Source: an uncultured Leptospira sp.
GTDB lineage: Bacteria; Spirochaetota; UBA4802; JAGODF01
Length of the DNA: 64,000 nt
Reading direction: 5' to 3'
NCBI GenBank assembly: GCA_964502925.1
Contig: CAZCYH010000020.1
Span: 442 to 64,441 of the forward strand
Below the pieces are notes generated by a model. That model had not been told where the DNA came from. It was given only the letters and a program-made list of their open reading frames with translations, and did no database searches. Made by a program: the position numbers and the translations under genes. This document shows positions 8,912 through 61,917 of the stretch, one piece after another. The number at the start of each line of letters is the position of its first letter. The first letter of the stretch is position 1.

Positions 8912-8941
8912 GGCGAAGAATTACGCTGGCGGTTCCGTCGG

Positions 8942-9481: not shown

Positions 9482-9514
9482 TCCCAAACTTAATGATGAT
9501 CACTCAAAACTCAT

Positions 9515-9772: not shown

Positions 9773-9808
9773 AGGGCTTTGTTCAATCCTAAGAGTGGAG
9801 TTGTGTGA

Positions 9809-10690: not shown

Positions 10691-10852
10691 TGAATTTGCA
10701 ATAACGAGACGGGCGGCTATGGTAGTTGCCGGTCTCTGGTGGGCATGAAATTAAGTAAAGCCGAATGTGGCGGAGAGGTATCCGACGCGGGCGGTTTTGA
10801 TTAAGCCCATAATGAATTTCAATCACCAATAAATTTTACAGGAGGAATCCAG

Positions 10853-32248: not shown

Positions 32249-32293
32249 CATGGCGAAGGTCCTTATTACTATGCGCCGAAAAATGCACCTACT

Positions 32294-34807: not shown

Positions 34808-34824
34808 AAAAGGGGATTTGAGTT

Positions 34825-40639: not shown

Positions 40640-40658
40640 GCCATTTTCTCCATGAGGA

Positions 40659-44318: not shown

Positions 44319-45207
44319 TTAATGTTTTAAATATGTCTTTGGGAGCTTTCTCACCTCCCGGCGTATTTAGTTTAATGCTAAAAATATTTCCGCATTCCCT
44401 GATGATATCGTGTAAATCTTCGCGAACGTTTTCGTCGCGCGTAATTGAAGTAAGAGCCATCAAAAGAGCATTCACGCCTTCAACAGCATTTCCAAGCCCT
44501 GTGTCGTAATCTGACTTGGGGTCGATATTTTCACGATCAGTGATAAGAGTGCCATTGATTCCCCCATCCAGCCAGATAGTGTAGTCTGCCTGAAGAAATA
44601 GCTTCCCGAGTGTCTCAAAATTTGAATCGAGTTCTTCTTTCAGATCGTTATCCAGCATCAAATCAATGTTATCTATGAGGAGGTTTTTAATGGTGAGGGG
44701 ATCGTAATAATCTAATTCATATTGTTCTGCTTTCCGAATAACGGAAAGAATATCGCTGCTTATACCAAGATCAGTATTCCTGACGGCATCAATAAATGCA
44801 TAAAGGTCCTGGGCATATCCGGTTTCTGGCGATGAGGTATGATAATCGAGCTCGTCTTGTTGTATAATTCGTTCGATGAGGCTTCGAATTTTTTGAAGTG
44901 TTTTTTGAAGAGGGCGGTCGCTGTGACCGATGAGTCGGTTGGTATCCTTCGTATTTTCGATATATTCATTCTTTCGTTCGTTTATGACACTGGAAAGGTG
45001 GTAATTAACAGTGTCCTGATCGAGGTGGTTAACGATGTCGTATAGAGAAGGATAATTATCGAGGAGGTCGAATAATTTATAATCATGCCCTTTATTGGCT
45101 TGAAATGTTCCCAATCCGGATTCGGAACAAGAGAAAAAACACATGAGGATAAAAGCAAAAAATATCCATTTGAACGAAGAAGTTTTAAAAGCCATAAAAG
45201 CCTCCAT
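44206..45207 (-). CDS. giant surface lipoprotein, cassette 2, N-terminal part
   Basis: Lipobox CFFSCSE. GHDYKLFDLLDNYPSLYDIV aligns with GYGYKLFDILDNYPSLYSMV of cassette 1. Overlaps 40659..44318 by 113 nt in a different frame. Confidence 0.65.
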   Translation of the reverse strand: MEAFMAFKTSSFKWIFFAFILMCFFSCSESGLGTFQANKGHDYKLFDLLDNYPSLYDIVNHLDQDTVNYHLSSVINERKNEYIENTKDTNRLIGHSDRPLQKTLQKIRSLIERIIQQDELDYHTSSPETGYAQDLYAFIDAVRNTDLGISSDILSVIRKAEQYELDYYDPLTIKNLLIDNIDLMLDNDLKEELDSNFETLGKLFLQADYTIWLDGGINGTLITDRENIDPKSDYDTGLGNAVEGVNALLMALTSITRDENVREDLHDIIRECGNIFSIKLNTPGGEKAPKDIFKTLIETAEDFFTAGGSKHGEQSVGIPLYNGNPSDANFFKQ

Positions 45208-45300
45208 ATTCTTAATAAATCTGTGAAGGGTAGATTGGCACATAAAAGATACATGAATTCATAATCCAAACTTTTCTGGGCGATAATAGTTTAGTAGTAT

Positions 45301-45514: not shown

Positions 45515-46747
45515 TCACAAAAACTCCAGAACCAGTAGCGTGATATCGTCCTCAATGGGCGCGCCCTGCGCGTGCTGAAGAACATCGGTGTAAATTTTAC
45601 GCGCCATGCCGTCTTCGTTTTTTTTGATGAATGATTCAGCTGCCTGCTTTAAACGCTTGTGGCCGTACATCTCGTGGTTTTTATCGAACTGTTCGATGAT
45701 GCCATCGGTGAAGAAAATCAGTCGGTCGCCCGATTCGAAATCGTATTCGGATTCATCGTACCGCGCTTCATCCAGAAGCCCAAGCCCGGGACCCGTGCCT
45801 TCAATATGAAGAAAAGAGCTATCGCGTGCTTTCCAGAAAAGCGGATGATGATGCCCGGCCTTTGCAGTGATGATCTTTCCATTTGAAATATCGATGAGAG
45901 CATAGTAGCTTGTTGCAAAAAGCTTGCGGGAAAGCACCTGGCAAAAATGCTGGTTCAGCTTCGTCATGAGCTGCGAGGGTCTGGTGCCGTAATCGGGTGT
46001 GAGCAAGGAAAATGCGCTTTTGAGAATGCCCGTGGCAAGTGCTGCAGTTACGCCATGCCCCTCAACATCGGCGATGATGACGGCGATGAGATCATCCCCA
46101 ATCTTTACGATATTCATAAAATCGCCTCCCACTTCAATGCAGGGATGGTAGATGAATTCGTGCCGGACGCGAGGATGAATCTGGCGGTTTTCTTCCATGA
46201 CGTCGGAGTTTATAAATATGCTCTGAATCTGCTGCGCCACCGAAAGATCGCGGTTGATGATTTCCAGTTCCGCGCTCTTTTCTCGAAGGGTGTGCTGAGA
46301 AAAGGTGATGTTTGCCAGCGCGTCGCGAAACCGCGCAAACGTTTCTTTGAGGCAATTTTTGTAGAATATGGTTGCAAGATCTCTGTTTTTTGCTAAAAGG
46401 ATATCGAAGTCTTTCTTATCGAGCTGGAAAATTTCGCTATCTTCAATGGTTGTGACGCTTGCCGAGCGCTTCAGATTGTCGATAAGTGAAAATTCGCCGA
46501 AGTAACTTCCGGCGCCAAGCAGACTTATGAATATTTCATCATCCTCTTCATCTGCTCTCGTGACCTTCACTGAGCCGCGCTTGATGATATACATGGCTTC
46601 GCCCGGATCTCCCTCGCGGATGATGGTTTCATCGGGTCGGCGTTGCAAAGGTTTGAGCAGCGGTGTAATTTCATCGAGCAGGGCTTCGTCCATTCCCTCA
46701 AATATCTTTATGCTTTTGAGTATTTTCTTAAGTTCGGGTGAATACAT
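45515..46747 (-). CDS. cNMP-binding domain - PP2C/SpoIIE-type serine phosphatase
   Basis: N-terminal cNMP-binding fold (GEFSLIDNLKRSASV) and a C-terminal PP2C domain (IADVEGHGV...FFTDGIIE). Confidence 0.8.
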   Translation of the reverse strand: MYSPELKKILKSIKIFEGMDEALLDEITPLLKPLQRRPDETIIREGDPGEAMYIIKRGSVKVTRADEEDDEIFISLLGAGSYFGEFSLIDNLKRSASVTTIEDSEIFQLDKKDFDILLAKNRDLATIFYKNCLKETFARFRDALANITFSQHTLREKSAELEIINRDLSVAQQIQSIFINSDVMEENRQIHPRVRHEFIYHPCIEVGGDFMNIVKIGDDLIAVIIADVEGHGVTAALATGILKSAFSLLTPDYGTRPSQLMTKLNQHFCQVLSRKLFATSYYALIDISNGKIITAKAGHHHPLFWKARDSSFLHIEGTGPGLGLLDEARYDESEYDFESGDRLIFFTDGIIEQFDKNHEMYGHKRLKQAAESFIKKNEDGMARKIYTDVLQHAQGAPIEDDITLLVLEFL

Positions 46748-48123: not shown

Positions 48124-48609
48124 TTAACGGACGAACTCAGCGGCTAATAGCGCTGGGTCGCTGGGCAACCCCCACCAGATGTGAAAAACAGTCGCTTCTT
48201 CTATACATTTATCGTAAATTGCACAGCTTTTGTAGGGATAAGAATCCACTTCCTCGTCGTACGCACCGCTTTCAATGCGCTCCACGAGTGCTGGCAAATA
48301 CTCCATCACCGCGATCGCAATCACATGCGAAATCGACCTTCTAAAAAACCTCCGCATATCGTTAAAATAATCATATTCTCTTTCGAGGATTTTAATTTTC
48401 ACGCGGAATTTTTTAATTGGCATTCCATCTTTATCAAACCGGTTCTGGTATGCAATTCTTCCGTGCTCCCTTTCGTACTTTGCGTGATGCCGCATTGCAT
48501 AACGCATTACTGCTATTATTAAATCAATCATCGTCCATCCCGTACGCTTTTCGGCGTCTTTGAGTAGCAATAACACCTCCTGGGTCATCATGTAGGTTGT
48601 TTTGATCAT
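48124..48609 (-). CDS. 161-aa multi-copy family protein, copy 3
   Basis: MIKTTYMMTQEVLLLLKDAEKRTGWTMIDL... with the conserved upstream promoter TTGAAA-N17-TATTGT. Trimmed from ORF 48124..48711. Confidence 0.75.
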   Translation of the reverse strand: MIKTTYMMTQEVLLLLKDAEKRTGWTMIDLIIAVMRYAMRHHAKYEREHGRIAYQNRFDKDGMPIKKFRVKIKILEREYDYFNDMRRFFRRSISHVIAIAVMEYLPALVERIESGAYDEEVDSYPYKSCAIYDKCIEEATVFHIWWGLPSDPALLAAEFVR

Positions 48610-48823
48610 CATTCGGCCTCCAAATAGAATTATGTTCATTGACGAGCTGCATAAACAACAATACGTATGTATAGTATTTTTTTCAAGCACAAAATTCTCT
48701 CTGAGTTTCATCCAGAATTGTAATTGACGTAACTCTCAATGTCTGCTTTTTATATAACCAATTGATACATGGCTGCTATCTTTATCCTCTACAAAATTGA
48801 GGCACAATCGAAAGTTTTTTATT

Positions 48824-49651
48824 ATGAAAAGAAATTATTTTGACCGAAACGCCAGCTACAAAAAATCCTTTCTCATCGATATGGATGGCGTCATTAATAA
48901 AGGGCGCTCTGTCATCCCCGGAGCCGTGGAGTTTGTGGACCGTCTTAAGAAAGGCCGCTTCCCGTTTCTCTTCCTCACCAATAATTCATATTATACACCC
49001 ACGGAACTCCGTGAACGGATGGCCAGGCTCGGCATTGAGGTGACGGATGATCATTTTTATACTTCCGCAATGGCGACAGCAAGTTTTATTGAATACCAGA
49101 AGCCGAAGTGCAGCGCATACGTCATTGGCGGCAAAGGGCTTATTGCCGAACTGGTGAAAGTGGGCGTGACGCTGACCGATACCGCGCCGGATTATGTGAT
49201 CATTGGGGAAACCGACGAATACGATTACCGCAAGATCGTCGAAGCCACGTTCCTCATACAGGAAGGTGCGAAGTTCATTGCCACAAATCCCGATCTCACT
49301 GGCCCCACAAAACGCGGTCCGGTGCCTGCCTGCGGGGCGCTTGTCTCTCCAATTGAAAAGGTGACGGGGGTATCTCCGTACTTTTTGGGGAAGCCGAATC
49401 CGGCGATGATGTATTGGGCGCGGAAGAAATTGCGGGTCCATTCCGCGAACTGCTTTATGATCGGCGATCGCATGGATACAGATATATTGGGCGGCCTTGA
49501 AGCAGGAATGACGTGCTGCCTTGTGCTTTCTGGGGTGACGTCGATGAAAATGCTTCCGCGCTTTCCGTATCAGCCTGATTATGTGTTTGAGAGCGTGGCC
49601 GATATCGACCCCAAAACAATTCTTTCGCGGCGCGAGCGGGTGGTGCGGTAA
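48824..49651 (+). CDS. HAD-IIA subfamily phosphatase (NagD-like)
   Basis: FLIDMDGVI nucleophile motif, LTNNS, and the C-terminal GDRMDTDILGG motif. Confidence 0.8.
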   Translation: MKRNYFDRNASYKKSFLIDMDGVINKGRSVIPGAVEFVDRLKKGRFPFLFLTNNSYYTPTELRERMARLGIEVTDDHFYTSAMATASFIEYQKPKCSAYVIGGKGLIAELVKVGVTLTDTAPDYVIIGETDEYDYRKIVEATFLIQEGAKFIATNPDLTGPTKRGPVPACGALVSPIEKVTGVSPYFLGKPNPAMMYWARKKLRVHSANCFMIGDRMDTDILGGLEAGMTCCLVLSGVTSMKMLPRFPYQPDYVFESVADIDPKTILSRRERVVR

Positions 49652-49848
49652 TGCCCTTCGAGAAAATACCGGGATTTCAAGGCAGAATTTACATCCCGGA
49701 TGAACAATTGAGCCGCAGAAAAAAACATCCCTGCGCGGACTGCTTCTCATGCCAGTTCTGCGACGACGATCGCTGCCGCGTGTGCAGAAATGGCCAATGC
49801 CGCGATGTCAGCTGCGATGTGCGGCCATCATCGAATAAAGCTGATTGA
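49651..49848 (+). CDS. small Cys-rich protein, start overlaps the HAD stop
   Basis: TAATG overlap with the preceding gene. Eleven Cys in 65 aa (CADCFSCQFCDDDRCRVCRNGQCRDVSC). The 3' end overlaps the convergent aroF-type gene. Confidence 0.35.
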   Translation: MPFEKIPGFQGRIYIPDEQLSRRKKHPCADCFSCQFCDDDRCRVCRNGQCRDVSCDVRPSSNKAD

Positions 49849-50821
49849 TCTTTTCCATCATCGATGCGAACTTATCGGGGCGAAGCGATTGCTTGCCGTC
49901 GCAGAGTGCTGTTTCCGGAGTCGGATGCACTTCGATGATAAGGCCATCTGCCCCTGCTGCTACTGCCGCAAGCGCAAGCGGTTCAATGAGCTTCCAGTTT
50001 CCCGCTGCGTGCGATGGGTCAACCACCACCGGCAGATGCGTTTTCGATTTCAGTACCGGTATTGCGGATATATCGAGCGTGTTCCGTGTTTCTGTTTCAA
50101 AGGTTCGGATGCCGCGTTCGCAGAGAATGACGTTCATGTTTCCTTCCGAGAGGATGTATTCTGCCGCCATTAAAAATTCTTCTATGGTAGTCATCATGCC
50201 GCGTTTGAGGAGCACGGGTTTGCCCGTTTTGCCGACTTTTTTTAAAAGCGCGAAGTTCTGGCAGTTTCGTGCGCCGATTTGCAAAATGTCTGCATATTCG
50301 CATATCACAGGAATATCATCCGGGTCCATCACCTCCGTGACCACCGCAAGGCCTTCGCGGTCGGCGGCGTTTCGCATCATCTTCAAGCCTTCAAGGCCAA
50401 GCCCCTGGAAGGCATAGGGAGAGGTTCGAGGTTTAAACGCGCCGCCGCGCAGCACCGTTGCGCCGGATTCCTTCACAGCCCGCGCCGCCTCCGCCATCTG
50501 GCTTTCGGATTCCACCGAGCAGGGTCCTGCCATAATGACCAGGTCTTTTCCTCCGATTGAAGTGCCGTTTGCCAGCCGTATGACAGTAGGAGTGTCTTTG
50601 ATTGTTTTGCTGGCAAGCACGTAGGGGACGCCTGGTTTCATGCACTGAAAGGCATGCGATAGTTTCGGTAACTGCTCAATGCCCGCATGGTCGGGGCCCA
50701 TGAATGTGGTGATTGGACCTCTGCTGGTTGATACGGTGTAGGCCCGAAGGCCCGATGCCTCAAAAAAGCGGGAGTGCTCCTTGAGTTCGTTATCATTTCC
50801 GGAATTCATCAGTACTATCAT
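49808..50821 (-). CDS. aroF: 3-deoxy-7-phosphoheptulonate (DAHP) synthase, type I-beta (AroF/KDO8PS-related)
   Basis: GPCSVES and RGGAFKPRTSPYAFQGLG, with the metal-ligand Cys/His pattern. Confidence 0.8.
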   Translation of the reverse strand: MIVLMNSGNDNELKEHSRFFEASGLRAYTVSTSRGPITTFMGPDHAGIEQLPKLSHAFQCMKPGVPYVLASKTIKDTPTVIRLANGTSIGGKDLVIMAGPCSVESESQMAEAARAVKESGATVLRGGAFKPRTSPYAFQGLGLEGLKMMRNAADREGLAVVTEVMDPDDIPVICEYADILQIGARNCQNFALLKKVGKTGKPVLLKRGMMTTIEEFLMAAEYILSEGNMNVILCERGIRTFETETRNTLDISAIPVLKSKTHLPVVVDPSHAAGNWKLIEPLALAAVAAGADGLIIEVHPTPETALCDGKQSLRPDKFASMMEKINQLYSMMAAHRS

Positions 50822-51231: not shown

Positions 51232-52389
51232 TTAGTAGGACTTCTTTCCTGTCATATGATCAATAAGCCGCATCACTGCATTGGCGTAGCCGAATTCGTT
51301 GTCGTACCAGAAATTTAAATCAACCATTGTATAGTAGTTATCCCCGCGTTTAGAGGTACGCCGGTGCGTGAAAGGCGAATCGTACATCGTCGAATACGGG
51401 CTTCCGATGACATCCGAGCTGACGAGTTGCTTTTTCGAATACAGCATGATTTCCGGATGCTTTGCCGAATACTGCTTGAATATCTCATGCACATAGGTGT
51501 TATCGAATTCACCCATGACGGTTACGTCGAGCACCACAATCGAGCCGGTGTTGGTGGGAACGCGTATCGATGATGCCTGCGAGCCGATCCCGAGCTCCCT
51601 GATCTCCGGGATGACTTCCAGTACCGCATTCGCAGCCCCTGTGGAGGTGGGAATCATGTTATTCAGGATGCTTCGCCGCTTTCGCGTGTCCTTATCGCCC
51701 GCTCTGGGAAGCACGTCGAGCACGCTCTGAGAATTGGTGACAGCATGCACGGTGGTGAGTGAATACGAAATGAATTTGTCTCCGAAATGATCCACCAGCG
51801 CCTTAATTGCCGGCGCGCAGCAGTTGGTAGTGCACGAGGCATTCGAAATGATCGAGTGCTTCGCATCGTCGTACCAGTGGAAATTTACTCCGCCAACAAG
51901 CGTTATTGCATCATCGGGCATTGCATCACCCTTATTTTTTATTTTAAACGGCGCAACTAAAATGACTTTCTTCGCATTGTTTAAATGGCCGCGCAGTGAA
52001 TTATCGTCGCGAACGCTTGGATCGGTCATCTTTCCCGTAGTGTCGATGACCAGTTCCACCCCGTACTTTGACCATGGGATATTGCCGGGCACGCGGCATT
52101 TTGAATCGGTAATCCATACGACTTTCACGCCATTGAGCCACACATGGCCATCTTTCACCTCAACTTTCGAAGGCGAATTAAATCCAAAGAAAAAACGGTC
52201 ATAGGGCCCGTAGGTTGAATCATAGCCAAGGTACGTCGCCAGATCATCCAGCCCCTTTCCTGTTTCGCGCCCGGTCGATATAACTACTTCCTTGTGTTCC
52301 TTTCTGGCCGTGATGAGCCAGAGCAGAAGTTTGCCGATTCTTCCGATACCGTTGATGCCGATGGGAGACTGCGTCGATACTGTTGCCAT
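51232..52389 (-). CDS. divergent glyceraldehyde-3-phosphate dehydrogenase-family protein
   Basis: NAD-binding INGIGRIGK and catalytic SNASCTTNCCAP. Several insertions relative to canonical GapA. Confidence 0.75.
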   Translation of the reverse strand: MATVSTQSPIGINGIGRIGKLLLWLITARKEHKEVVISTGRETGKGLDDLATYLGYDSTYGPYDRFFFGFNSPSKVEVKDGHVWLNGVKVVWITDSKCRVPGNIPWSKYGVELVIDTTGKMTDPSVRDDNSLRGHLNNAKKVILVAPFKIKNKGDAMPDDAITLVGGVNFHWYDDAKHSIISNASCTTNCCAPAIKALVDHFGDKFISYSLTTVHAVTNSQSVLDVLPRAGDKDTRKRRSILNNMIPTSTGAANAVLEVIPEIRELGIGSQASSIRVPTNTGSIVVLDVTVMGEFDNTYVHEIFKQYSAKHPEIMLYSKKQLVSSDVIGSPYSTMYDSPFTHRRTSKRGDNYYTMVDLNFWYDNEFGYANAVMRLIDHMTGKKSY

Positions 52390-52427
52390 TTCCTCTTGCT
52401 CCTTATTTATTCATTAGTAAAGCGCCT

Positions 52428-55400
52428 TTATACCGCCGCGCGCTGTGCGGGGCGTGTACGGTGCTGACCGGCGAACACGTTACCCGTTGTCCCGTCGATC
52501 GTGATAAAATCCCCCTCTTTAAAAACGCGCCTCCTCTCACCATTGCTACGGCTTTCCACGCATGCCGTGTTTTTCTTTTCGTCGATCTTCATAATTGAAA
52601 AATCGCTCACGCCCGATTTCTCAAGCCTTCGCATCTGCAATACTGCATGGGACGTCATTCCTCCCACGCAGGTGAGTATGCCGTCCGATTTCATCAGCCC
52701 GATGACATCTTCCGGGTTGGTTTCCGGCCTCACCAGAATAATCCGGTCGCCGGGATATTGCCTTCGCATTTCATCAATCCGTGCTATATGAAAAACCATG
52801 CGGCCGGAAACAGCGCCCCCTGATGCGGCAAGGCCCTGGCCCAGATAGTCTTTCTGAATTTCCACGGGATCCTCGTCGATGACATCATACTCAAAGACGT
52901 GCTTGGTCATGCCGCGCACCTGAAGGATGTAGAGTTCATCGTCTTCACAGGTAAATTCAATTTCAACATCATTGCCCCAGCTATCGCGGATGCGTTTGAC
53001 CGCTTCGGCGAGGCGCCGATACTGCGCGGGGAACGATGTTTCAAGCGATGGGAATTCCGCGGATTTCGCGTGTATCTTTTTCTGCTCCTCGCTTATGGGA
53101 AACACTTTCGCCACGCCGCTTACGATATCGTGACCCTGCGCGCGCGTTTTGTATTCGCCAAAGAGCGAGAGCTTCTCCCTGCCCAGGTACTGGCTGTGCA
53201 CCACGCCGGTGATATTGTGCGGCTTGATGTTGCCGAACACCATTCTTTGCACAATCACGGCGGTGCCCCACTCGTCGGATACATTGATGAAGGTGCGATA
53301 ATTTTCGGCAATCGGCGAATCCCAGGATTGAAAGACCGCCAGAATCGCGTAGAGAAGCTGTTCGTAGGGGTCTTTGGGAATTGAGAATCCGTAATCGTTG
53401 ATGACATAGCGGTACTTTCTCGTTAAAAGCTTCATCTGCGTGCCGGTGAGCTTTTCTTTCAAATCGACACCAGCTTCGCTTTTCGCCACCGCCATAAGTT
53501 TTTCGAAAATTGCGCGGTCGATGCCGTACAGCGAGATACCGAAATCCTGAATGAGCCGGCGGTAGCAGTCGTACGCGAACCAGGCATCGGTTTCGGAGAG
53601 CTTTTCGAGTATTTCCTCGGTGATGCCGATATTGGTGATGGTGTCCATGACACCGGGCATTGAAAACACGGCGCCGCTTCGCGCGGAAAGCAACATGGGA
53701 TTTTTTGGATTGGCAAATTTCCCGCCGGTGAAATCATCGACGTACTTTTTGATGAAATGCACGAGCTTGCGTCGAAACCGCGGGTTTTTAATATTATCTT
53801 CTTTGACTCGTTTATAAAATTCGGAAGAAATCACGAACCCGTCCGGCACGCTCATCTTTAGCTGACGCGAAATAAACATGAGGCCGTGCGCCTTTCCTCC
53901 CACCTGCCAGATCGGCGCGCACACTTCACCTGGTTTTCCGGGAGCTTCGCCTTTAATGGGCTGGACAATGAACCCTTTGCTTTCCTTCCTGCGCTTCGCA
54001 TTCAGACAGACATCATCGGATCCTATTCCCGCTAATGCCTCTTTCATAAAAACCAGCAGATTGTCGAAAAGCTGCAAAAGCGGCGATTGCATGATTTGCC
54101 CGCGCAGAAACCGGTCGACAATGACTTCTATATCGCCGCTGCGACCGCCGCCCACGGCGAAGCGCGCGGATATGTTATCGACTCCAATGCTCTTCACCGC
54201 TTCCCGTATGACGAACATGAATGTTTCATTGAAGCGGTCGGAAATCTCGCCATGAATCACTAAAAGGTGATGCACAATGTCGCGTAATTGAGAACGTTTA
54301 AGGTTTGGTGTCTCCAGCAGATCCATCACCATGATCATTTCCTGATTCACCAGCCCGTCCACGATGAAAGCGCGGAAAAAGAGGTTCACTGCTTTTTTAA
54401 TGTGCTGAAAATTCAACCCCGCCGTTGTCTCCATCTTCAGCTTCTCTATCAATTTTTCGAAAAGCCGGGTGCGGATGATGTTCATGTGGAAAAAGGCGCG
54501 CAGCGTGTCGAATTTTTTTTCTTTATAGGAGCCGTACATAGACGGTATTCCGAACGCGATGTGGCGCTTGAATTCGATGGTATCGAGCGGCTCGAATATC
54601 CTGGAAGACAGGAGCACTTCTTCTTTAAGCTCTTCCTGCACTAAAAGCAGCGCTTCGAGCGCGACTGTCTCGTCCTGATCTGAAATCGCTGTAAAGAAAA
54701 ACGGGGGTGGACTGAAGATGCCTTCGGCAGCATAATCTTGAAGGCGATCGAGCACTCGCATTTCAGAAAAATTATATTTATCGTAGATCAATCGATAGAC
54801 GTGCAGAAAATCCAGAAATTTTTCGAGATTTACTTTTGAAATCTTTTCTCCGGAATCATTGCAAATTGAAGTAATTTCCTGATCGCTAAGCGAATACAGT
54901 ACATCCCAGATGGGCGTTCCCGAAGATCCGTTGCCGCGCCGCTTTGCAATACAGCAAAGAATCTTTCCCATCTCAGCGGGACTTTTCCGCTTCAGATATT
55001 CCGAAATCCGCGAAAGCGCGCGCGATGCGCCATCGCCGAGCTTGTCCACAACCAATGCAGCTTCCTTGAAGAATGCATCTGCATCAACAGAATATAAAAA
55101 ATCCCAGAAGAACGTACCATTGACATTGCCGATCCGCTGTTTCACGCCATCAACCAGACGCACGGCAAGTGGATCATCGCCAAGGCGGTCGATTTCGAGA
55201 AATTCCGGAAGAGTGCCATACACATCGGCAGGAACCATGCCCTTTAACAGGGACGAATCCCCCGTCATCCAGAACTGCATCATCATCTGCATCAAAAACA
55301 CTGTACGGGAACTCGATTCCACATGAATCTGCTTACGTAAAAAATGCACGGGATCGTCCATGCTGTGATACATATCGATCTTTTCGGTGATGGCGCGGAT

Positions 55401-56864
55401 GTTTCCGGTGGCGCCAATGTCGTGGTAGAATGCCGGAAAAACCGCAGCCAGCGAAATGATAAGATAGAACACTTCCCTGTAATCGCTATTGAGCAGGCGG
55501 GAGATATCGCGCTGAAAGACATCCGTGTCTTTCAAAAAAACGCCGCCCAATTTTAGATTAACGATGAGCGCCGCCGCAAGTTTTTTCATCATCGCAGGAT
55601 TGAGCTCAATGAGATGAAGCCATGTTCGGATGTTTTCAAGATGGCTTGAATTGACAATCACCGACCAGTCCTGTGCGATGCCTGAGTATTGGGGGAAGCA
55701 GAACTTTGAACGCACCAGGTAGTCGATGAAATAGTCTATGAGAAACGTATCGCCAGAGCGGACCACCGCGCTTCCGATATTATAAATGGTCGTAAATGCC
55801 GCCTGGTAATTGCCGCCACGTTCTATTTCGCCCAGAAGCTCGGGCATGATGAGGTCAATAACGCTTCGGACGATTTCAATTCTGCCCTTCAATGCAAAGT
55901 GGGAACACAGCGCCGCCACTGAACGCGATATAAAAAGCTGCAATTCTCTGTCCGCCCCCTCGGTGGACCTGGCAACCAGAAAGCTGAGAAGTGCTTTCAC
56001 GGATTCATCATCCGCCGCATAATCGGCCTTGAGGGTTTCGGTGGCCTTTATGCAGATTTTTTCCCACTGACGCTGGTTATGCAAAAAATCAGCGATCCCG
56101 CTTTCGGGGAAAAAAAGGGTAGTGTGGTCGCTTGCCGCAGATTTTTCAGCTTCGGCAACATTCTGTTTGTATGTATCGCGGGAAACGGACTGAAAGAGTG
56201 GAATGAGATCTTTTCCGAAATTTCCATCAAGAATGCCTGATATTTTATCGATATCATGTCTTGAAAGTGCGATGCATCGTTCAACATAGAGCCGGTACTG
56301 ACAGCAAATGAATTCCGCAAGAAGCAATGCAATGTTGTTTGTAGCGGCTCTCTTTCCGACAATCAGCCCGGCCTTGCGCGCAATCTCGTTTACATATCCG
56401 AAAAAAAGCCCTTCCTTGCTCAGCCTAAGCAGAAGTGCGACATATTCATAAGCAAAATCGAGAAATAATCTTTCCAGTTCTTTGAAATGATTGTTTTCTG
56501 AAGAAATCTTGAGCACAAACACAAATCGATCTAAGAATGTGTCTGCCGCACGAATCGCTGAAACTTTGCCGCGCTGCGTTCCGGCCTCAAGAAAATGAAA
56601 TACGACAGGAAGAACATCTTTTGCATGCGGCGCAATATCGTACAGATTATCGAACAGATATTCTCTCAGGCCTGCAATCACAAATTTCCAGTCAATATTG
56701 GGATGGCGGAGTTCCTCTATGAGCTTTTCAGTTTTCCTGGCGGCGCCGTACTTATTCCATAGAGGCAGGAGGAGGCTTTCAATCTTCAGGGATTCATCCA
56801 CGCGCGGCGGAACTTCCACCTGAACCACCGCGCCTTTGCGATTTATTGCAATCGCTGACTCCAT
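52428..56864 (-). CDS. 1478-aa protein: novel ~900-aa N-terminal region + PEP-synthase-like ATP-grasp nucleotide-binding domain + PEP-utilizer phosphohistidine swivel domain (no PEP/pyruvate TIM-barrel domain)
   Basis: The C-terminal ~550 aa match a PPDK_N/PpsA N-terminal domain (IWQVGGKAHGL...) followed by the mobile His domain (LTCVGGMTSHAVLQMRRLEKSGVS). The protein ends right after the swivel domain. Confidence 0.7.
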   Translation of the reverse strand: MESAIAINRKGAVVQVEVPPRVDESLKIESLLLPLWNKYGAARKTEKLIEELRHPNIDWKFVIAGLREYLFDNLYDIAPHAKDVLPVVFHFLEAGTQRGKVSAIRAADTFLDRFVFVLKISSENNHFKELERLFLDFAYEYVALLLRLSKEGLFFGYVNEIARKAGLIVGKRAATNNIALLLAEFICCQYRLYVERCIALSRHDIDKISGILDGNFGKDLIPLFQSVSRDTYKQNVAEAEKSAASDHTTLFFPESGIADFLHNQRQWEKICIKATETLKADYAADDESVKALLSFLVARSTEGADRELQLFISRSVAALCSHFALKGRIEIVRSVIDLIMPELLGEIERGGNYQAAFTTIYNIGSAVVRSGDTFLIDYFIDYLVRSKFCFPQYSGIAQDWSVIVNSSHLENIRTWLHLIELNPAMMKKLAAALIVNLKLGGVFLKDTDVFQRDISRLLNSDYREVFYLIISLAAVFPAFYHDIGATGNIRAITEKIDMYHSMDDPVHFLRKQIHVESSSRTVFLMQMMMQFWMTGDSSLLKGMVPADVYGTLPEFLEIDRLGDDPLAVRLVDGVKQRIGNVNGTFFWDFLYSVDADAFFKEAALVVDKLGDGASRALSRISEYLKRKSPAEMGKILCCIAKRRGNGSSGTPIWDVLYSLSDQEITSICNDSGEKISKVNLEKFLDFLHVYRLIYDKYNFSEMRVLDRLQDYAAEGIFSPPPFFFTAISDQDETVALEALLLVQEELKEEVLLSSRIFEPLDTIEFKRHIAFGIPSMYGSYKEKKFDTLRAFFHMNIIRTRLFEKLIEKLKMETTAGLNFQHIKKAVNLFFRAFIVDGLVNQEMIMVMDLLETPNLKRSQLRDIVHHLLVIHGEISDRFNETFMFVIREAVKSIGVDNISARFAVGGGRSGDIEVIVDRFLRGQIMQSPLLQLFDNLLVFMKEALAGIGSDDVCLNAKRRKESKGFIVQPIKGEAPGKPGEVCAPIWQVGGKAHGLMFISRQLKMSVPDGFVISSEFYKRVKEDNIKNPRFRRKLVHFIKKYVDDFTGGKFANPKNPMLLSARSGAVFSMPGVMDTITNIGITEEILEKLSETDAWFAYDCYRRLIQDFGISLYGIDRAIFEKLMAVAKSEAGVDLKEKLTGTQMKLLTRKYRYVINDYGFSIPKDPYEQLLYAILAVFQSWDSPIAENYRTFINVSDEWGTAVIVQRMVFGNIKPHNITGVVHSQYLGREKLSLFGEYKTRAQGHDIVSGVAKVFPISEEQKKIHAKSAEFPSLETSFPAQYRRLAEAVKRIRDSWGNDVEIEFTCEDDELYILQVRGMTKHVFEYDVIDEDPVEIQKDYLGQGLAASGGAVSGRMVFHIARIDEMRRQYPGDRIILVRPETNPEDVIGLMKSDGILTCVGGMTSHAVLQMRRLEKSGVSDFSIMKIDEKKNTACVESRSNGERRRVFKEGDFITIDGTTGNVFAGQHRTRPAQRAAV

Positions 56865-57124
56865 CGCATAACCCGCATGTAGAAAATGGTGCGGACTGAG
56901 GGGACGTACGCCATTTTCAGCACCACATAATAAGTATAAAGGCGGGAATGACCATTCGGCGAGAGGGATTCCCCAAAGTGCGTTGTAAGGTTTTTCCTTT
57001 TATTGCATAGGGGATTTCCCTATGACACCCTTGCTTCATCAGATATACGCGGCGAGGGCACAACACTCCCCTGAGAGCAAAACAATACAGGCATTCATCA
57101 ATCGATGTGCAATAACAACATCAG

Positions 57125-58137
57125 CTACTTTGCCGACGCTTTTTGGTTTCTGGAATCGAAGGGATATACGGACTGGAAATCGTCGGGGGGAAGCACATTT
57201 CGAAGCGGCTGGTATTTTTTTTCAGTGAGATTGAATTCCATGCGCTGACGCATCCCGTCCTGGTCGATGAAGCTTACGCGGAACACGTCGCTTACTTTCG
57301 CGCCATCTTCGAGCCGGATGATGCCGTTGTCGATAAGCTGCAGGAAAAATGTCCGTAGTATGCCGAACGACATCTTCTGGATATTCAAATCCGATTGGTG
57401 GCGATGGTCGTACAAGCCTAAATTAACATCGGCGACCCGATAGGGTCCGAAACAGGTATCGATGTTGATACCGGTCTCAACGCCGTACATCTGCCAGAAG
57501 CAGACAGAATTGAAAAACTCAAGTGTGCCTGCCACCTCCCCCGAAAGCGGGTACGATAAATCCGTAAGTTTCGCTATTTTTGGATGATCGATGAGGGAAA
57601 AAAGAGGCTGCGCTACAAACTTTTTCACCCTCCCCATGGCGCGCCAGAAACTCGCTTTTGCGAAATCGTACCCTTTGAGCACTGGTCCGGCAAGGCCGGT
57701 GACGAAATGCGCGCCGAAATATTCCGGGAGCACGTCGGAATCCAGAAAGACAACTACTATGTCCGCAGGGCCGGTGCCATTGACATATTCGAGATTCATC
57801 TGATACAGCGCCCGGCGCATATCGGAGCCTTTGCCGGTTTCATCTTCCATGTCGGGGGGGCATGATGAATTATTCAGCAGGATTTTAATTCCCGAATCGG
57901 CTTCTCGGGCTAAAAGCTCTGTCCTGTCCTCTTCGCTTCCAAAACGGCGGTGGGATAGAAAAATCCCGTCAACAAGTGTTGAAAGCTCATTTTTGATGAG
58001 CTTTACTTTCGTATGGATGAGATCGGCTTCGCGTTCCCCGCAGGTGGAAAAGACTACAAATAGCTTTCGATCCCCCTTCAGTCGTGAAACCACGTCAAGG
58101 GGGAAATCGGTTGCCTCATAATGGTCAATTAACTTCA
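57125..58137 (-). CDS. glucosyl-3-phosphoglycerate synthase-like GT-A glycosyltransferase (GT81 family)
   Basis: From memory of mycobacterial GpgS: TGKGSDMRRAL ~ PGKGEALWRSL; ADIVVVFLDSDV ~ GDIVVFIDSDL (DxD motif); YPLSGEVAGTLEFF..YGVETGINIDT ~ QPLSGEYAASRELL..YGVEIGLLIDT. Trimmed to the Met at 58137 with RBS AAGGGA. Confidence 0.65.
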
Positions 58138-58361
58138 TGATAGATCCCTTAAATAACAATTCACCGACAAGCGGTTTTTTGTAAAGAATAAATTGTATTG
58201 TATGATGCAATATGAAGGGCTTATCAGCATGGTCAGTTGACCGCGAAATTCATAATAAAACAAAAATGGAATAAACTTGCCTGCAGAGAGGTTTTTGCCA
58301 TCCTTGGTATTCTGAAAATGTCCACATGGGCGCGATGAATCGCGCTACTCATTGAAAAATG

Positions 58362-59315
58362 TCATTTGATTTCAACGATAACCAGAGTGATATCATCGGT
58401 TATCTTATTTTTGCGTCCTCCCCAGTTTAAAGCGGTATCAACAATGCTATCAATGAGTTCATTAGTCGTTTTGTGATGATTTTCTTCAATACACGATATT
58501 AATCGCTCAATACCGAAAAGCTGCTTTTTGCTGTTCCGTAATTCTATTATTCCATCGGTGTAGAGTATGATTCTGTCATTAGGTTGCAATGTATAGGTGA
58601 CAACATCATTTTTTATGGATTCGAAAACACCGAGTATATTTCCTGCAACGGGTATCTCGATGACTTTGTGTGTATTGCCCTGCAGTATTAACGGTAATGG
58701 ATGGCCTGCCCTTGAAAATTTCACCATTTTTTGTGACGCATCAACATACGCATATAATGCGGTAATCGGTTGTTTTCCAGTTTTTCCATATAAAATGCTG
58801 TTCATGTTTGACAGAAGTAGTGCGGGATTATCTCCATGATGGAGCTGTAAGGAATATGCGATATTAACTGTAGAGGCAAACAAAGATGCCGGAATTCCAT
58901 GACCTGTGACATCAGCGATGATGATTCCAATTCTCTCGGGATCAAATTCATGAAAGTGGTAAAAATCTCCCCCTATTTCCTCCATCGGGATATAGCGTAT
59001 TTCAAAGTGAATCGAAGGTGTTGATGGGGCGGTTTCGGGCAAAATCCTTTTTTGAATTCTCCGCGCGATTGCAAGCTCGCTGTTTATTGCAGCTAAACGG
59101 TTTTGAATATTTATTGATTCTTCAAGCGTGGCAAGTGACTGCGTAAATACAAACATTAGCAGGCCTATTTCAAATAAATACATGCTGTTAAGTAGCTGTT
59201 GAGAATATAAAATGTCATTCACCAGAGTGAGAAATAATATAATATAACCGCAAATGTATATGATAAAATTTGATTGTTTTGACGTAGCTTTTATTAAAAC
59301 ATATATAAAATACAC
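58362..59315 (-). CDS. PP2C/SpoIIE-type phosphatase with 3 N-terminal TM helices (3' part of a frameshifted 7TMR-DISM phosphatase gene)
   Basis: PP2C motifs IGGDFYHF..IADVTGHGIPA..LYTDGIIE. The N-terminal TM helices complete the 7TM bundle begun in 59333..60325. Confidence 0.7.
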   Translation of the reverse strand: MYFIYVLIKATSKQSNFIIYICGYIILFLTLVNDILYSQQLLNSMYLFEIGLLMFVFTQSLATLEESINIQNRLAAINSELAIARRIQKRILPETAPSTPSIHFEIRYIPMEEIGGDFYHFHEFDPERIGIIIADVTGHGIPASLFASTVNIAYSLQLHHGDNPALLLSNMNSILYGKTGKQPITALYAYVDASQKMVKFSRAGHPLPLILQGNTHKVIEIPVAGNILGVFESIKNDVVTYTLQPNDRIILYTDGIIELRNSKKQLFGIERLISCIEENHHKTTNELIDSIVDTALNWGGRKNKITDDITLVIVEIK

Positions 59316-59332: not shown

Positions 59333-60325
59333 CTATTTGTATAAAATGTAAGGAGAAAGAAACGATTGGTATGGGGACAGAGCATACAAAAAGAATGAAA
59401 AAGCAAAATAAATATTAATCGAATATAATACTTTTCTGTTGATGTTTTTTGGATACAGTCCTTTAATAAATTGCGCGAAAGATATTATGCCCAGCAATAT
59501 TGTACAATACTCCATCCGTAAATACATGTCCCATGGAAGTGAGGAAACATATTTCACAAAAAGCTTTTCATCGATTAAAAGTAGCCTCAATCCAATGACT
59601 GCACAGTAGAATGCGAAATAGAGATTTGTTGTATATCCTTTATTAAAAATAAAAAGGCCGATATGGTATAACAAAATAACAAGAAGTGCTGCGGTGACAA
59701 ATAATGTTATGAAAATTTTTAATTCGTACTGCTTAATTATTATATCATAATTTCCATACTTAATGCTTCGTAAAATGCCTCCGGTTCGCTGCTGGAAGTT
59801 AGATATATGCAGAACAAGCTCGGTCGTAGGGGAATCGACGATAAATTGGGCAATAAGCGGTAATTGAAAAGGAGTCATTGTTGCATCTGAAGTTCCAACT
59901 CTCCCATTCCGACTGGCAATTTTACCGTTAACCCAGAGAGTGTATGCAGAATGCACATAGGGCATCATTAATGTTTTTATGTTCCCTATATCCCTGGTAT
60001 CGTGGATAATTCTTAATCGATATGTGGCATAACCAAAAGCAGGAAATGCATTTTTAAAATTTTTTTGCTTATTCCATGCGCCTGGTACTTTTATATATGC
60101 ATGTGGCTTAATATCTTTTGCAAACTGTGATGGCTCAATAAGTGAGTTCCAGTAGAATTCCCACTCTCCATCCAGGGCAAGCACCTGATGTATTGATTCA
60201 CCCTGACTTCGCAAATCCAAAACCCCATTGACTGCAACGGGGTTGTTGAAAGTGTTACTTTGATTGCAGCTGATGCACGCAACAAATGTGAATAATATGA
60301 AAATAAAAATATTTTTTTTATACAT
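59333..60325 (-). CDS. 7TMR-DISM extracellular domain + first 4 TM helices (5' part of a frameshifted 7TMR-DISM/PP2C gene)
   Basis: Lipoprotein-like signal sequence, a periplasmic DISMED2-like domain, then 4 TM helices. Stops 17 nt before the next ORF, which is in a different frame inside an A/T-rich stretch. Confidence 0.7.
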   Translation of the reverse strand: MYKKNIFIFILFTFVACISCNQSNTFNNPVAVNGVLDLRSQGESIHQVLALDGEWEFYWNSLIEPSQFAKDIKPHAYIKVPGAWNKQKNFKNAFPAFGYATYRLRIIHDTRDIGNIKTLMMPYVHSAYTLWVNGKIASRNGRVGTSDATMTPFQLPLIAQFIVDSPTTELVLHISNFQQRTGGILRSIKYGNYDIIIKQYELKIFITLFVTAALLVILLYHIGLFIFNKGYTTNLYFAFYCAVIGLRLLLIDEKLFVKYVSSLPWDMYLRMEYCTILLGIISFAQFIKGLYPKNINRKVLYSINIYFAFSFFLYALSPYQSFLSPYILYK

Positions 60326-61431: not shown

Positions 61432-61917
61432 TTAACGGGCAAATTCTGCGGCTAACAGCGCCGGATCGCTCGGTAATCCCCACCAGATGTGAAACACCGT
61501 CGCTTCTTCTATACATTTATCGTAAATTGCACAGCTTTTGTAGGGATAAGAATCCACTTCCTCGTCATACTCACCACTTTCAATGCGCTCTACCAATTCA
61601 GGGAGATATGCCAGCACCGCAATCGCAATTACATGCGAAATCGACCGCCTGAAAAACCTCCGCATATCATTGAAATAATCGTATTCCCGTTGATGAAATT
61701 TCACTTTCACCCGAACTTTTGGTATCGGCATGCCCTCTGCGTCGAAGCGCTTCTGGTATGCAATTCTTCCATGCTCCCTTTCATATTTTGCGTGATGCCG
61801 CATTGCATAGCGCATGACCGCGACGACAAGATCAATCATTGTCCATCCGGTGCGCTTCTCTGCGTCTTTGAGCAGCAGCAATACTTCGTGCGTCATCATG
61901 TACGTGGTTTTTATCAT
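61432..61917 (-). CDS. 161-aa multi-copy family protein, copy 4
   Basis: MIKTTYMMTHEVLLLLKDAEKRTGWTMIDL...AEFAR. About 90% nucleotide identity to copies 1 and 3, and the same upstream promoter motif. Confidence 0.75.
   Translation of the reverse strand: MIKTTYMMTHEVLLLLKDAEKRTGWTMIDLVVAVMRYAMRHHAKYEREHGRIAYQKRFDAEGMPIPKVRVKVKFHQREYDYFNDMRRFFRRSISHVIAIAVLAYLPELVERIESGEYDEEVDSYPYKSCAIYDKCIEEATVFHIWWGLPSDPALLAAEFAR

Follow-up and report, generated by a model that had tools for sequence, protein, structure and literature searches.

A PPDK-type phosphohistidine dikinase with a new helical N-terminal domain is encoded beside a distinct GAPDH in many bacteria

The closest described system to the large protein reported here is pyruvate, phosphate dikinase (PPDK, EC 2.7.9.1; Clostridium symbiosum 1KBL/1DIK), with which it shares ATP-grasp and swivel domains of about 30% identity, the catalytic Lys, Arg, Glu and Gln and the T-S-H motif; unlike PPDK, it has no PEP/pyruvate TIM barrel, a 960-aa helical domain precedes the common module, and the domain order is permuted, the presumed acceptor domain being N-terminal. 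VadK of Mycobacterium tuberculosis (Rv1127c) is about 490 aa long and is not known to have an extra domain. It is a barrel-less PPDK derivative acting as a regulatory kinase, which phosphorylates itself on His and has methylcitrate-cycle enzymes as interaction partners (PMC13400623). The PPDK-derived ATP-grasp and His domains and the absence of the barrel are common to VadK and our protein, whereas the taxa are different and the metabolic partner here is a GAPDH. Rifampin phosphotransferase, glucan water dikinase and PigC/RedH likewise pair an ATP-grasp domain and its swivelling His carrier with a substrate domain particular to each family, but their similarity to our protein is weak (NF041857 for rifampin phosphotransferase, 21.9 bits; PigC, 20.3 bits; Foldseek against RPH, E 1e-5 and TM 0.15) and the acceptor domains are unrelated.

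The window (the whole stretch of 64,000 nucleotides analysed) contains three co-oriented genes on the minus strand, as described in the initial annotation, and all three are real, each having many homologues. They encode a GpgS/MpgS-like glycosyltransferase (57125-58138; 337 aa from ATG, with a TTG-extended version of the ORF reaching 58210), the 1478-aa dikinase-like protein (52428-56864) and the partner GAPDH (51232-52389; 385 aa), the latter two being the core parts of a conserved pair. The operon had been placed correctly except that its end, given as 58137, was one base short. The 260-nt spacer between the glycosyltransferase and dikinase genes (56865-57124, minus strand) contains no riboswitch and one weak promoter-like match (56954-56927), and the promoter count is not above that of shuffles. 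Instead of the overlap that had been proposed at the GAPDH start, 38 nt separate it from the dikinase stop, and an AAGGAG ribosome-binding site precedes it. A DAHP synthase gene (49808-50821, minus strand) and a NagD-type HAD hydrolase gene (48797-49651, plus strand) belong to the context and not to the core; these neighbours recur solely within the same Spirochaetota subclade, in rearranged order.

Our comparisons show the large protein to be a His-swivel dikinase of new architecture, its C-terminal half being a complete PPDK ATP-grasp and phosphohistidine apparatus. Pfam assigns PPDK_N to residues 1053-1322 and PEP-utilizers (PF00391) to residues 1375-1461, and the PEP-utilizers_C barrel is absent from the Pfam/NCBIfam profile search, in agreement with the module first described for this protein. 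The PPDK model TIGR01828 gives 345 bits over model positions 18-335 only (cut-off 843), and PRK05878 ("pyruvate, phosphate dikinase", 534 positions), which we take to be of the Rv1127c/VadK type, matches the C-terminal module with 245 bits (cut-off 456). The C-terminal 518 aa match true PPDKs with E values of 1e-68 to 1e-71 over PPDK residues 19-339 and, as judged by sequence, the module is nearest to true PPDK and not to PEP synthase or rifampin phosphotransferase. The nucleotide-binding domain occupies roughly residues 985-1345 (52830-53912, minus strand) and the swivel domain roughly residues 1356-1478 (52431-52799, minus strand), the latter aligning to PPDK residues 389-514. Equivalents of PPDK K22, R92, G101/M103, E323, Q335, R337 and T453/H455 are conserved, the identities of all except the last pair following the PPDK literature. 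The predicted phospho-carrier is His1406 in GGMTSHA (codon 52647-52649, minus strand), which is invariant and aligns with PPDK His455; the Thr453 equivalent lies two positions ahead of it. Superposition of the predicted model on 1KBL/1DIK gives 3.0-3.8 A across about 545 columns, and the protein ends where the PPDK linker to the TIM barrel would start.

The N-terminal domain (residues 1-960; 53985-56864, minus strand) is an all-alpha, HEAT/ARM-like solenoid, and the helical region of about 900 aa, in which no domain had been recognised at first, has thus kept that description: no match was found in Pfam, NCBIfam or PADLOC and no relative in the PDB, neither profile nor structure comparison placing it in a known family. 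The AF2 model of these residues is confident and almost wholly helical, and its sole structural resemblance is to HEAT/ARM solenoids, folds which usually bind proteins and not small molecules. About 60 residues are invariant even in sequences whose identity to the window protein is only 22-26%; many of these, being Arg, Lys, His, Asp or Glu, fall in two clusters, at residues 399-518 and 766-785. The most conserved block, residues 399-518 (55311-55670, minus strand), is a candidate acceptor or catalytic site; its motifs are DWxVIVNSxHLENIRTW, LIVNLKLGGVFLKDTDVFQRD..LLNS, FPAFYxDIGATGxIR and HFLRKQxHVESS, and they contain invariant columns in alignment A1, whose sequences are 22-65% identical to the window protein. 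The second invariant motif, KRHIAFGIPSMYGSY (residues 766-780; 54525-54569, minus strand), forms a small hairpin (model strands 764-770 and 773-777) that is the largest beta element of the domain. Full-length relatives are always 1350-1540 aa long with both parts fused, and among them the N-terminal domain was never seen without the dikinase module. Because of these dense invariant charged residues and the constant fusion, the domain has the look of a site for catalysis or ligand binding more than of a passive extension.

Gene neighbourhoods were compared at 69 informative loci spread over some ten phyla (Spirochaetota, Desulfobacterota, Bacteroidota, Bacillota, Nitrospirota, Myxococcota, Alpha- and Gammaproteobacteria, Actinomycetota and Eisenbacteria). 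What is conserved is a unit of two genes, dikinase and GAPDH, and not of three; conservation of the originally described neighbourhood holds for this pair, while the glycosyltransferase accompanies it only in the closest subclade. A GAPDH-family gene lies directly 3' of the dikinase gene at 60 of the 69 loci, with a median gap of 31 nt in a clustering of the loci, and upstream at six, and no GAPDH gene is within reach at the other three (L023, L024 and L035). The pairwise distances within one of the two protein families track those within the other (r = 0.98), and other flanking genes are unrelated from phylum to phylum. The GAPDHs paired with the dikinase are of three types, and in one case PGK takes their place; at L041, pgk directly follows the dikinase gene. 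CODH/ACS genes are found upstream of the pair in Desulfobacterales, and glycogen-synthase-like genes near the dikinase gene in Desulfobulbaceae.

The partner GAPDH has both Gp_dh_N and Gp_dh_C, and its catalytic Cys186 (Cys149 equivalent; codon 51832-51834, minus strand) is intact in SNASCTTN, as had been noted. It scores 300 bits against TIGR01534 (cut-off 367) and belongs to a distinct subfamily of 380-440 aa with the signatures Gly-Arg insertion, SCTTT, TGSQ (D181S), DLRKNRS and ILTTTGAA. Equivalents of Cys149, His176, Thr179, Arg231 and Thr208-Gly209 are retained and both phosphate sites are kept. At the coenzyme site, the signature ISTGRETGKG (52252-52281, minus strand) has lost Asp32 and gained a 4-residue insertion with the conserved Gly-Arg; every partner-type sequence has a signature of this type, and the canonical GAPDHs of the same loci do not. 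Since Asp32 is the determinant that specifies NAD and is lost in NADP-using gluconeogenic GAPDHs, the partner is probably of the NADP type. It keeps all catalytic and phosphate-site residues of phosphorylating GAPDH and, with respect to the lost Asp32, resembles the gluconeogenic members of paired glycolytic and gluconeogenic isoenzymes (Bacillus subtilis GapA/GapB, for example), but it is usually paired with the dikinase instead of PGK. It can also sit inside or beside a gap-pgk-tpi operon: at L089 it holds the "gap" position of gap-pgk-tpi-secG, and at L090 the order is dikinase, partner GAPDH, canonical gap, pgk, tpi and secG. These two positions point to a role at the ordinary triose-phosphate node and not as an exotic reductase, and the earlier suggestion that it reduces a glucosylglycerate-like compound is therefore set aside.

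Our best reading, which we hold tentatively, is that the protein is a new His-swivel dikinase acting with GAPDH at the 3-phosphoglycerate/1,3-bisphosphoglycerate node. Its framework, still the best available, is the one originally proposed, in which a dikinase transfers phosphate to a substrate bound by a separate, non-homologous domain. Judging from the conserved catalytic residues, ATP and Pi would be converted to AMP and PPi with phosphorylation of His1406, and the swivelling phosphohistidine would give its phosphoryl group to, or in reverse take it from, a site formed by the invariant basic and acidic motifs of the N-terminal domain, which would stand in for the PEP/pyruvate barrel of PPDK as the acceptor domain. 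The near-universal GAPDH neighbour and the gene contexts at L090, L041 and L089 suggest an acceptor at the GAPDH/PGK node, our specific guess being interconversion of 3-phosphoglycerate and 1,3-bisphosphoglycerate; the partner would be a bona fide phosphorylating GAPDH, probably using NADP(H), which interconverts 1,3-bisphosphoglycerate and glyceraldehyde-3-phosphate. Against this reading, the enzyme is not a simple replacement of PGK, since PGK is present and adjacent in at least two genomes carrying the module. The reading is further weakened as to a small-molecule acceptor by the resemblance to protein-binding solenoids, as to a C3 acid by the 960 residues, which are very many for such binding, and as to coupling with GAPDH by the three loci that have none within reach. 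The anabolic context (CODH/ACS, glycogen-synthase-like genes and, here, the 3-phosphoglycerate-type glycosyltransferase upstream) was counted in favour.

The main rival is a regulatory or scaffolding kinase like VadK, in which the module only autophosphorylates and the solenoid docks onto the GAPDH tetramer or onto other enzymes of glycolysis, controlling their activity by phosphotransfer or sequestration. Loss of the barrel from a PPDK derivative, His autophosphorylation and interaction with metabolic enzymes are all known for VadK (PMC13400623), and the PRK05878 match, the solenoid fold and the way the protein is closely paired and inherited with a single protein partner fit such a role. We nevertheless consider it unlikely: the dense invariant polar and charged motifs of the N-terminal domain are typical of a catalytic pocket, partners of three GAPDH types and once PGK are better explained by a shared metabolite than by one protein interface, and VadK is not known to have a comparable domain.

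It is rather improbable that the protein is a non-homologous analogue of PPDK whose helical domain binds pyruvate or PEP, with GAPDH as a mere neighbour in the gluconeogenic pathway. The C-terminal half is nearest to genuine PPDK, some sources annotate relatives as PPDK (other database labels are generic), the Desulfotignum phosphitoxidans genome paper lists two genes as PPDK, which may or may not belong to the dikinase family described here, and the place 3' of CODH/ACS in Desulfobacterales fits a route from acetyl-CoA through pyruvate to PEP; but the N-terminal domain has no likeness in sequence or fold to the PEP/pyruvate barrel, the pyruvate/PEP and GAPDH steps are not consecutive, and the near-universal linkage to GAPDH is tighter than that to any other glycolytic gene. 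Less probable again is a different acceptor close to triose or glycan metabolism, such as glycerate, glyceraldehyde or dihydroxyacetone or, on the pattern of glucan water dikinase, a polyglucan (e.g., glycogen) held by the helical domain. Dikinases of the superfamily (glucan water dikinase and rifampin phosphotransferase) do phosphorylate simple hydroxyl groups, and the glycogen-synthase-like genes of Desulfobulbaceae would suit a glycan, but searches with the domain gave neither a carbohydrate-binding nor an (alpha/alpha)6-barrel match, glycan genes are not conserved neighbours beyond that one family, and the linkage to GAPDH would have no explanation.

The glycosyltransferase is a lineage-specific accessory neighbour outside the conserved pair. 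Its likeness to GpgS, already proposed, was supported by alignment of the DxD (FLDSDV), GRV and HR motifs with mycobacterial GpgS over about 250 residues and by its best PDB sequence matches, mycobacterial GpgS and MpgS (E 1e-14 to 1e-12), and some sources name its relatives GpgS. Unlike GT81 GpgS/MpgS, it has no Pfam match and is below the GpgS cut-off (PRK13915, 105.6 bits; cut-off 262), and it belongs to a family found across Spirochaetota and usually flanked by UPF0182 and GH77 genes, as for a homologue of about 60% identity in two other Spirochaetota genomes (L091 and L092). It is directly upstream of the dikinase gene in L003/L005, L085, L086 and L087 and 2.6 kb away in L004, the homologues in L003, L085, L086, L087 and L004 being 76-97% identical to it. 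The glycosyltransferase and the pair may share 3-phosphoglycerate as a substrate. That the three genes together produce or alter a glyceric-acid glycoside, a carboxylate being first phosphorylated and then reduced, as originally suggested, is very improbable. They are co-oriented and highly conserved in the closest subclade, with GpgS-like motifs and a HAD phosphatase nearby, but no other locus retrieved through the large protein or its GAPDH partner contains the glycosyltransferase, which is unlinked in the other Spirochaetota having one and missing beside the pair in many phyla, and a GAPDH found in gap-pgk-tpi operons with both phosphate sites fits glyceraldehyde-3-phosphate/1,3-bisphosphoglycerate and not a bulky glycoside.

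The pair is present in hundreds of bacteria, mostly anaerobic, and we found no description of it; the family, a novel helical domain joined to a PPDK half and encoded beside a special GAPDH, is widespread, with annotations that are generic or read PPDK. If the favoured dikinase reading is true, the pair would provide an ATP-to-AMP-driven, NADPH-dependent gluconeogenic route parallel to PGK and NAD-GAPDH and, in reverse, would regenerate ATP from AMP and PPi.

The minus strand of the window carries three co-oriented ORFs, as the initial annotation had described, which together span 51232-58210. In transcription order they are a gene for a GpgS/MpgS-like glycosyltransferase (57125-58138, minus strand, 337 aa counted from its ATG), a gene for a 1478-aa protein that we call the dikinase (52428-56864, minus strand), and a gene for a 385-aa GAPDH-family protein (51232-52389, minus strand). 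The first two genes are separated by 260 nt and the last two by a 38-nt spacer containing AAGGAG, so the overlap once proposed between the GAPDH start and the region after the large gene is not present. The limits of 51232-58137 previously assigned to the group hold at their start and are one base short at their end, where the ATG-started gene reaches 58138. The closest named relatives of all three proteins are from Spirochaetota, and the trio sits among genes typical of a chromosome (F-type ATP synthase, MoeA, FGAM synthase and signalling proteins); this housekeeping context and the absence of a PADLOC match ruled out a role in anti-phage defence. No riboswitch or other RNA motif was found upstream of the three genes, promoter predictions were not more numerous than in shuffled sequences, and a terminator scan gave nothing convincing.

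Several other features of the surrounding DNA were recorded. SpoIIE/PP2C phosphatases lie on both sides of the operon (45515-46747, 58362-59315 and 59333-60325, all minus strand), one carrying a fused cNMP-binding domain and another placed after a 7TMR-DISM-like membrane module that is split here into two ORFs; three relatives (L003, L086 and L087) also have these genes close to the module. Two small paralogous ORFs (48124-48711 and 61432-61917, both minus strand), very alike by eye over about 160 common residues, flank the block of glycosyltransferase, dikinase, GAPDH and DAHP synthase genes at roughly 2.5 kb on each side, and the former has no Pfam match. Six large ORFs at 30455-36339 (plus strand) and 39179-45243 (minus strand), encoding 597, 837, 504, 528, 1219 and 345 aa, belong to no Pfam family; their sole match is a weak beta/gamma-crystallin hit at residues 368-408 of the 1219-aa protein, and several have signal-peptide-like N-termini. 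The gene at 26210-29545 (plus strand) encodes 1111 aa in which a radical-SAM activase domain (residues 41-208) is joined to a PFL-like glycyl-radical enzyme (287-746, with Gly_radical at 990-1094), an arrangement that seemed unusual; a sulfatase gene (24321-25730, plus strand) lies about 0.5 kb upstream of it.

Pfam recognized only two domains in the dikinase, PPDK_N (PF01326) at residues 1053-1322 (E 2.5e-22) and PEP-utilizers (PF00391) at 1375-1461 (E 6.7e-12), and gave no match to the PEP/pyruvate TIM barrel (PEP-utilizers_C). The best NCBIfam model was that of PPDK (TIGR01828), with 345.5 bits against a cut-off of 843 and only model positions 18-335 of 865 covered. In a search of PDB sequences the last 518 residues matched PPDKs at E 1e-68 to 1e-71, and the module aligns to PPDK residues 19-514, i.e., the ATP-grasp domain (19-339) and the central phosphohistidine domain. 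The ATP-grasp and GGxTSHA swivel domains of PPDK are thus present, whereas its C-terminal barrel is absent, the protein ending at the equivalent of PPDK residue ~514, where the linker to the barrel starts. Equivalents of K22, R92, G101/M103, E323, Q335, R337 and T453-S-H455, which we take to be the catalytic residues of PPDK, are all conserved, most being invariant across the dikinase family, as is the GGMTSHA motif containing His1406. An AF2 model of residues 279-1478 (pLDDT 81, pTM 0.76) superposes on the Clostridium symbiosum PPDK structures 1KBL/1DIK at 3.0-3.8 A over about 545 columns, in the conformer with the His domain docked on the nucleotide domain. Because the catalytic residues, the alignment and the superposition agree, ATP- and Pi-dependent phosphorylation of His1406 is well supported, if by inference.

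Models of other dikinase types gave lower scores. Those of PEP synthase, rifampin phosphotransferase and PigC/RedH gave 20-60 bits; the large protein fell below the cut-offs of PEP synthase TIGR01418 (47.9 bits against 739.75) and rifampin phosphotransferase NF041857 (21.9 bits against 999), and Foldseek gave a TM of ~0.15 to RPH structures. The truncated PPDK model PRK05878, presumably representing the type of VadK (Mycobacterium tuberculosis Rv1127c, a PPDK derivative without the barrel), gave 245 bits against a cut-off of 456. Proteins of this truncated type have two domains in ~500 aa, whereas the dikinase of the window carries an extra N-terminal domain of 960 residues.

Residues 1-960 have no match in Pfam, NCBIfam or PADLOC; the profile searches therefore found no known domain in the region that the initial annotation had left unassigned. 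An AF2 model based on a 21-sequence alignment is of good confidence (pLDDT 82.3, pTM 0.73) and almost purely helical, the exceptions being a few very short strands and a small hairpin at 764-777. The domain is nonetheless more than a featureless scaffold: about 60 alignment columns do not vary even among sequences that share only 22-26% identity with the window protein, and these cluster in 399-518 (motifs DWxVIVNSxHLENIRTW, LKLGGVFLKDTDVFQRD, FPAFYxDIGATGxIR and HFLRKQxHVESS) and in 766-785 (KRHIAFGIPSMYGSYxExKF), many of them being Arg, Lys, His, Asp or Glu. Since invariant and charged columns are so dense in these clusters, we infer that an anionic ligand is bound or turned over there. Ten of 21 family members gave a 46-residue Pfam match to APG12 (ubiquitin-like Atg12; best E 1.8e-6), located for example at 452-497 of member P0060, and in one of them it passed the gathering score (27.7 bits). 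This identity was rejected, because the region is a predicted helix-loop-helix (residues ~470-515) and not a ubiquitin-like fold; the match is based on IGATGxIR...HFLRKQ and is probably a chance resemblance.

The family is widespread. A search with the N-domain gave 97 clusters at 90% identity, with the dikinase module in all full-length members, and an exhaustive profile search gave 743 at 50% identity, with 279 reaching E <= 1e-30 and full-length members being 1350-1540 aa long. A relative is encoded in at least 578 of the 598 pattern-matched stretches listed from a one-genome-per-species collection, and the family spans about ten phyla. Represented among the best 80 of these at least 578 loci are Spirochaetota/Leptospirales, many Desulfobacterota, Bacteroidota, Bacillota, Nitrospirota, Myxococcota, Alpha- and Gammaproteobacteria, Magnetococcales, Actinomycetota (Thermoleophilia), Thermodesulfobacteriaceae and Eisenbacteria. 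The family is also present in cultured bacteria, among them Desulfogranum marinum DSM 2058 (L035) and the fully sequenced Desulfosudis oleivorans Hxd3 (L088). In a Bacteroidota MAG (L069, 5441-9558) the gene is split into ORFs of 749 and 618 aa, by a frameshift or as a genuine split, and the genes after it resemble, as judged by eye from N-terminal sequences, those for isocitrate dehydrogenase and citrate synthase. Source databases name the proteins only "PEP-utilizing enzyme", "PEP/pyruvate-binding domain-containing protein", "pyruvate,orthophosphate dikinase" or "hypothetical", and genome annotations that count them as PPDK are probably wrong. A full-text literature search found no description of the family and no PPi-linked phosphoglycerate kinase or dikinase, VadK being the sole relevant precedent.

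Gene order was compared among 69 independent loci with at least 1.3 kb of sequence downstream of the dikinase gene. A GAPDH-family gene follows immediately on the same strand in 60 of them and lies upstream instead in six, while the remaining three (L023, L024 and L035) have none; ORF clustering gave a median gap of 31 nt to the downstream gene. Hxd3 also carries the pair, as found by a look-up from the GAPDH side, with the dikinase gene at about 241716-245924 of CP000859.1 and the partner GAPDH gene at 246005-247258. All-against-all ORF clustering of about 85 loci found no third conserved gene beyond single lineages, and flanking genes were unrelated in ten loci from different phyla. Neighbours were lineage-specific: in Desulfobacterales CODH/ACS genes precede the dikinase, and in Desulfobulbaceae it has glycogen-synthase-like genes nearby. 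The conserved unit is therefore dikinase plus GAPDH, without a third gene. Pairwise distances of the two proteins are highly correlated (r = 0.98, 49 loci), which indicates that they are inherited together and is by itself no proof of physical interaction.

The partner GAPDH is, judging from its residues, a distinct but genuine GAPDH subfamily. It scores 300.3 bits on TIGR01534, below the cut-off of 367, and keeps the NAD(P)-fold glycine motif, Cys149, His176, the Ps site (Thr179, Arg231) and the Pi site (Ser148/Thr150/Thr208-Gly209); the window protein has the motifs SNASCTTN, TVHAVT, IRVPT and PTSTGAA. Asp32, the NAD determinant in GAPDH, is absent from the end of beta-2 throughout the partner clade, which has ISTGRE.. 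in its place, with a four-residue insertion that contains a conserved Gly-Arg. This loss and the new Arg suggest use of NADP(H). Further signatures are SCTTT, TGSQ (D181 to Ser), DLRKNRS (R195 to Lys) and ILTTTGAA, and several surface insertions bring the length to 380-440 aa; the signatures are absent from canonical GAPDHs in the same loci. In Desulfobulbaceae and some Bacteroidota, the dikinase lies beside a canonical or other type of GAPDH, located upstream. A third type (VVHINDM, TIHPTTNNQ, IPTTSSAVRS, ATRIPI) is directly upstream of the dikinase in one Bacteroidota and one alphaproteobacterial MAG (L067, 7977-8978; L045, 8024-9028), L045 having GAPDH genes on both sides.

Genes of lower glycolysis also occur at such loci, two of which were reached from the GAPDH side. 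In a Thermodesulfobacteriota MAG (L090) the genes for the dikinase and the partner GAPDH are followed by canonical gap, pgk, tpi and secG; in a Desulfobulbaceae MAG (L089) a partner-type GAPDH with the full signature occupies the "gap" slot of gap-pgk-tpi-secG, with no dikinase nearby; and pgk directly follows the dikinase in L041. With the GAPDH contexts, these loci make both 1,3-bisphosphoglycerate enzymes recurrent neighbours, and it is mainly because GAPDH and pgk recur that we place the acceptor at the 3-PG/1,3-BPG node.

By analogy with PPDK, His1406 would be phosphorylated from ATP with Pi, and the His domain would then swivel to the conserved pocket of the helical N-domain, where a metabolite of the GAPDH/PGK node may accept the phosphoryl group or donate it. 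We consider it rather probable that the family is a new dikinase whose function is bound up with the GAPDH reaction. That it works at the 3-PG/1,3-BPG node together with GAPDH is a narrower proposal, which we hold only tentatively. The candidate reaction is 3-PG + ATP + Pi <-> 1,3-BPG + AMP + PPi, with the 1,3-BPG then reduced by the partner GAPDH in an NADPH-dependent step. From textbook values we estimate the acyl phosphate of 1,3-BPG to lie about 12 kJ/mol below PEP in energy, and a phosphohistidine able to make PEP should therefore be able to make 1,3-BPG. Hydrolysis of PPi would turn the uphill step of PGK strongly favourable. A gluconeogenic role would fit the CODH/ACS and glycogen-synthase-like neighbours in the two desulfobacterial lineages and the 3-PG-type transferase here; the reverse direction, yielding ATP from AMP and PPi, would as speculation suit sulfate reducers, which produce both compounds. 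In its fullest form the proposal is an unrecognised central-carbon reaction, in which a PPDK-style 3-PG/1,3-BPG dikinase, coupled physically or kinetically to a dedicated NADP-type GAPDH and holding its phosphotransfer site in a new alpha-solenoid enzyme fold, would give anaerobes a strongly driven gluconeogenic PGK bypass or, in reverse, ATP from AMP and PPi; so complete a picture is doubtful. Simple replacement of PGK was ruled out, since pgk adjoins the module in L090 and L041.

Two observations tell against a 3-PG/1,3-BPG dikinase, namely that a solenoid fold is typical of protein binding and that PGK coexists with the module. The protein might instead act on GAPDH as a regulatory kinase or scaffold, for which VadK is a precedent (PMC13400623); we regard this as unlikely, with the extra domain and its charged invariant clusters on one side and the solenoid fold on the other. 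A non-homologous PPDK analogue making PEP would make use of the same phosphohistidine chemistry in a protein lacking the PEP/pyruvate barrel; the recurrent neighbours are the 1,3-bisphosphoglycerate enzymes, and we judge it improbable. Another C3 compound or a glucan as acceptor, to which the glycogen-synthase-like neighbours of one family might point, appears highly improbable beside the GAPDH linkage.

The glycosyltransferase is a distant relative of GpgS/MpgS. It scored 105.6 bits on the GT81 GpgS model (NCBIfam PRK13915; NF010496), below the cut-off of 262, its best PDB match is mycobacterial GpgS (E 1.5e-14), and FLDSDV (DxD), GRVKKFVAQP (GRV) and YDHRHQ (HR) align to the GpgS motifs in 7PDO, so that the DxD metal/nucleotide-sugar and GRV/HR acceptor-site motifs of GT81 are kept. 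A gene 76-97% identical in product immediately precedes that of the dikinase in L003/L005, L085, L086 and L087 and lies 2.6 kb upstream in L004, which are all the relatives with an N-domain at least 56% identical to that of the window. It is absent from every other locus, nine other Spirochaetota loci included (L001, L006-L013), and the DAHP synthase, HAD hydrolase and SpoIIE phosphatase neighbours are likewise lineage-specific. The transferase family is common in Spirochaetota at about 60% identity, and in two other genomes of the phylum (L091 and L092) it lies far from any dikinase, beside UPF0182 and GH77 genes; at 5455-10954 of these loci it is divergently adjacent to this conserved pair, GH77 being the 4-alpha-glucanotransferase family. 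This adjacency hints that the real role of the transferase is in alpha-glucan or compatible-solute metabolism. The three-gene arrangement is thus real but lineage-specific, being linked only in the closest relatives, and the glycoside pathway of the initial annotation, which drew on all three genes, is not supported and seems very improbable. Its domain calls (PPDK-type ATP-grasp and swivel-His without a TIM barrel, a helical N-region, a GAPDH-family enzyme and a GpgS-like transferase) were correct, and the neighbourhood conservation it proposed to check extends across genomes for the dikinase and GAPDH and stops at the closest relatives for the transferase.

The finding is more general than that pathway: dikinase and GAPDH form an uncharacterised module of central metabolism that is widespread and has a novel acceptor domain, its kin being the His-swivel dikinases. 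Lower glycolysis and gluconeogenesis are usually held to be fully known, and here is a dikinase family whose genes nearly always accompany one for GAPDH and in some cases pgk/tpi. If the proposed reaction is true, it would be a PGK bypass in sulfate reducers, acetogen-like bacteria, leptospire-like spirochaetes and Bacteroidota. A new 3-PG/1,3-BPG phosphotransfer would give the dikinase superfamily a new acceptor domain, and the way in which the metabolism of sulfate reducers, Wood-Ljungdahl organisms and many uncultured anaerobes is reconstructed and their energy budgeted would have to be revised. If the role is regulatory, the family would be a second and far more widespread PPDK-derived kinase controlling central metabolism.
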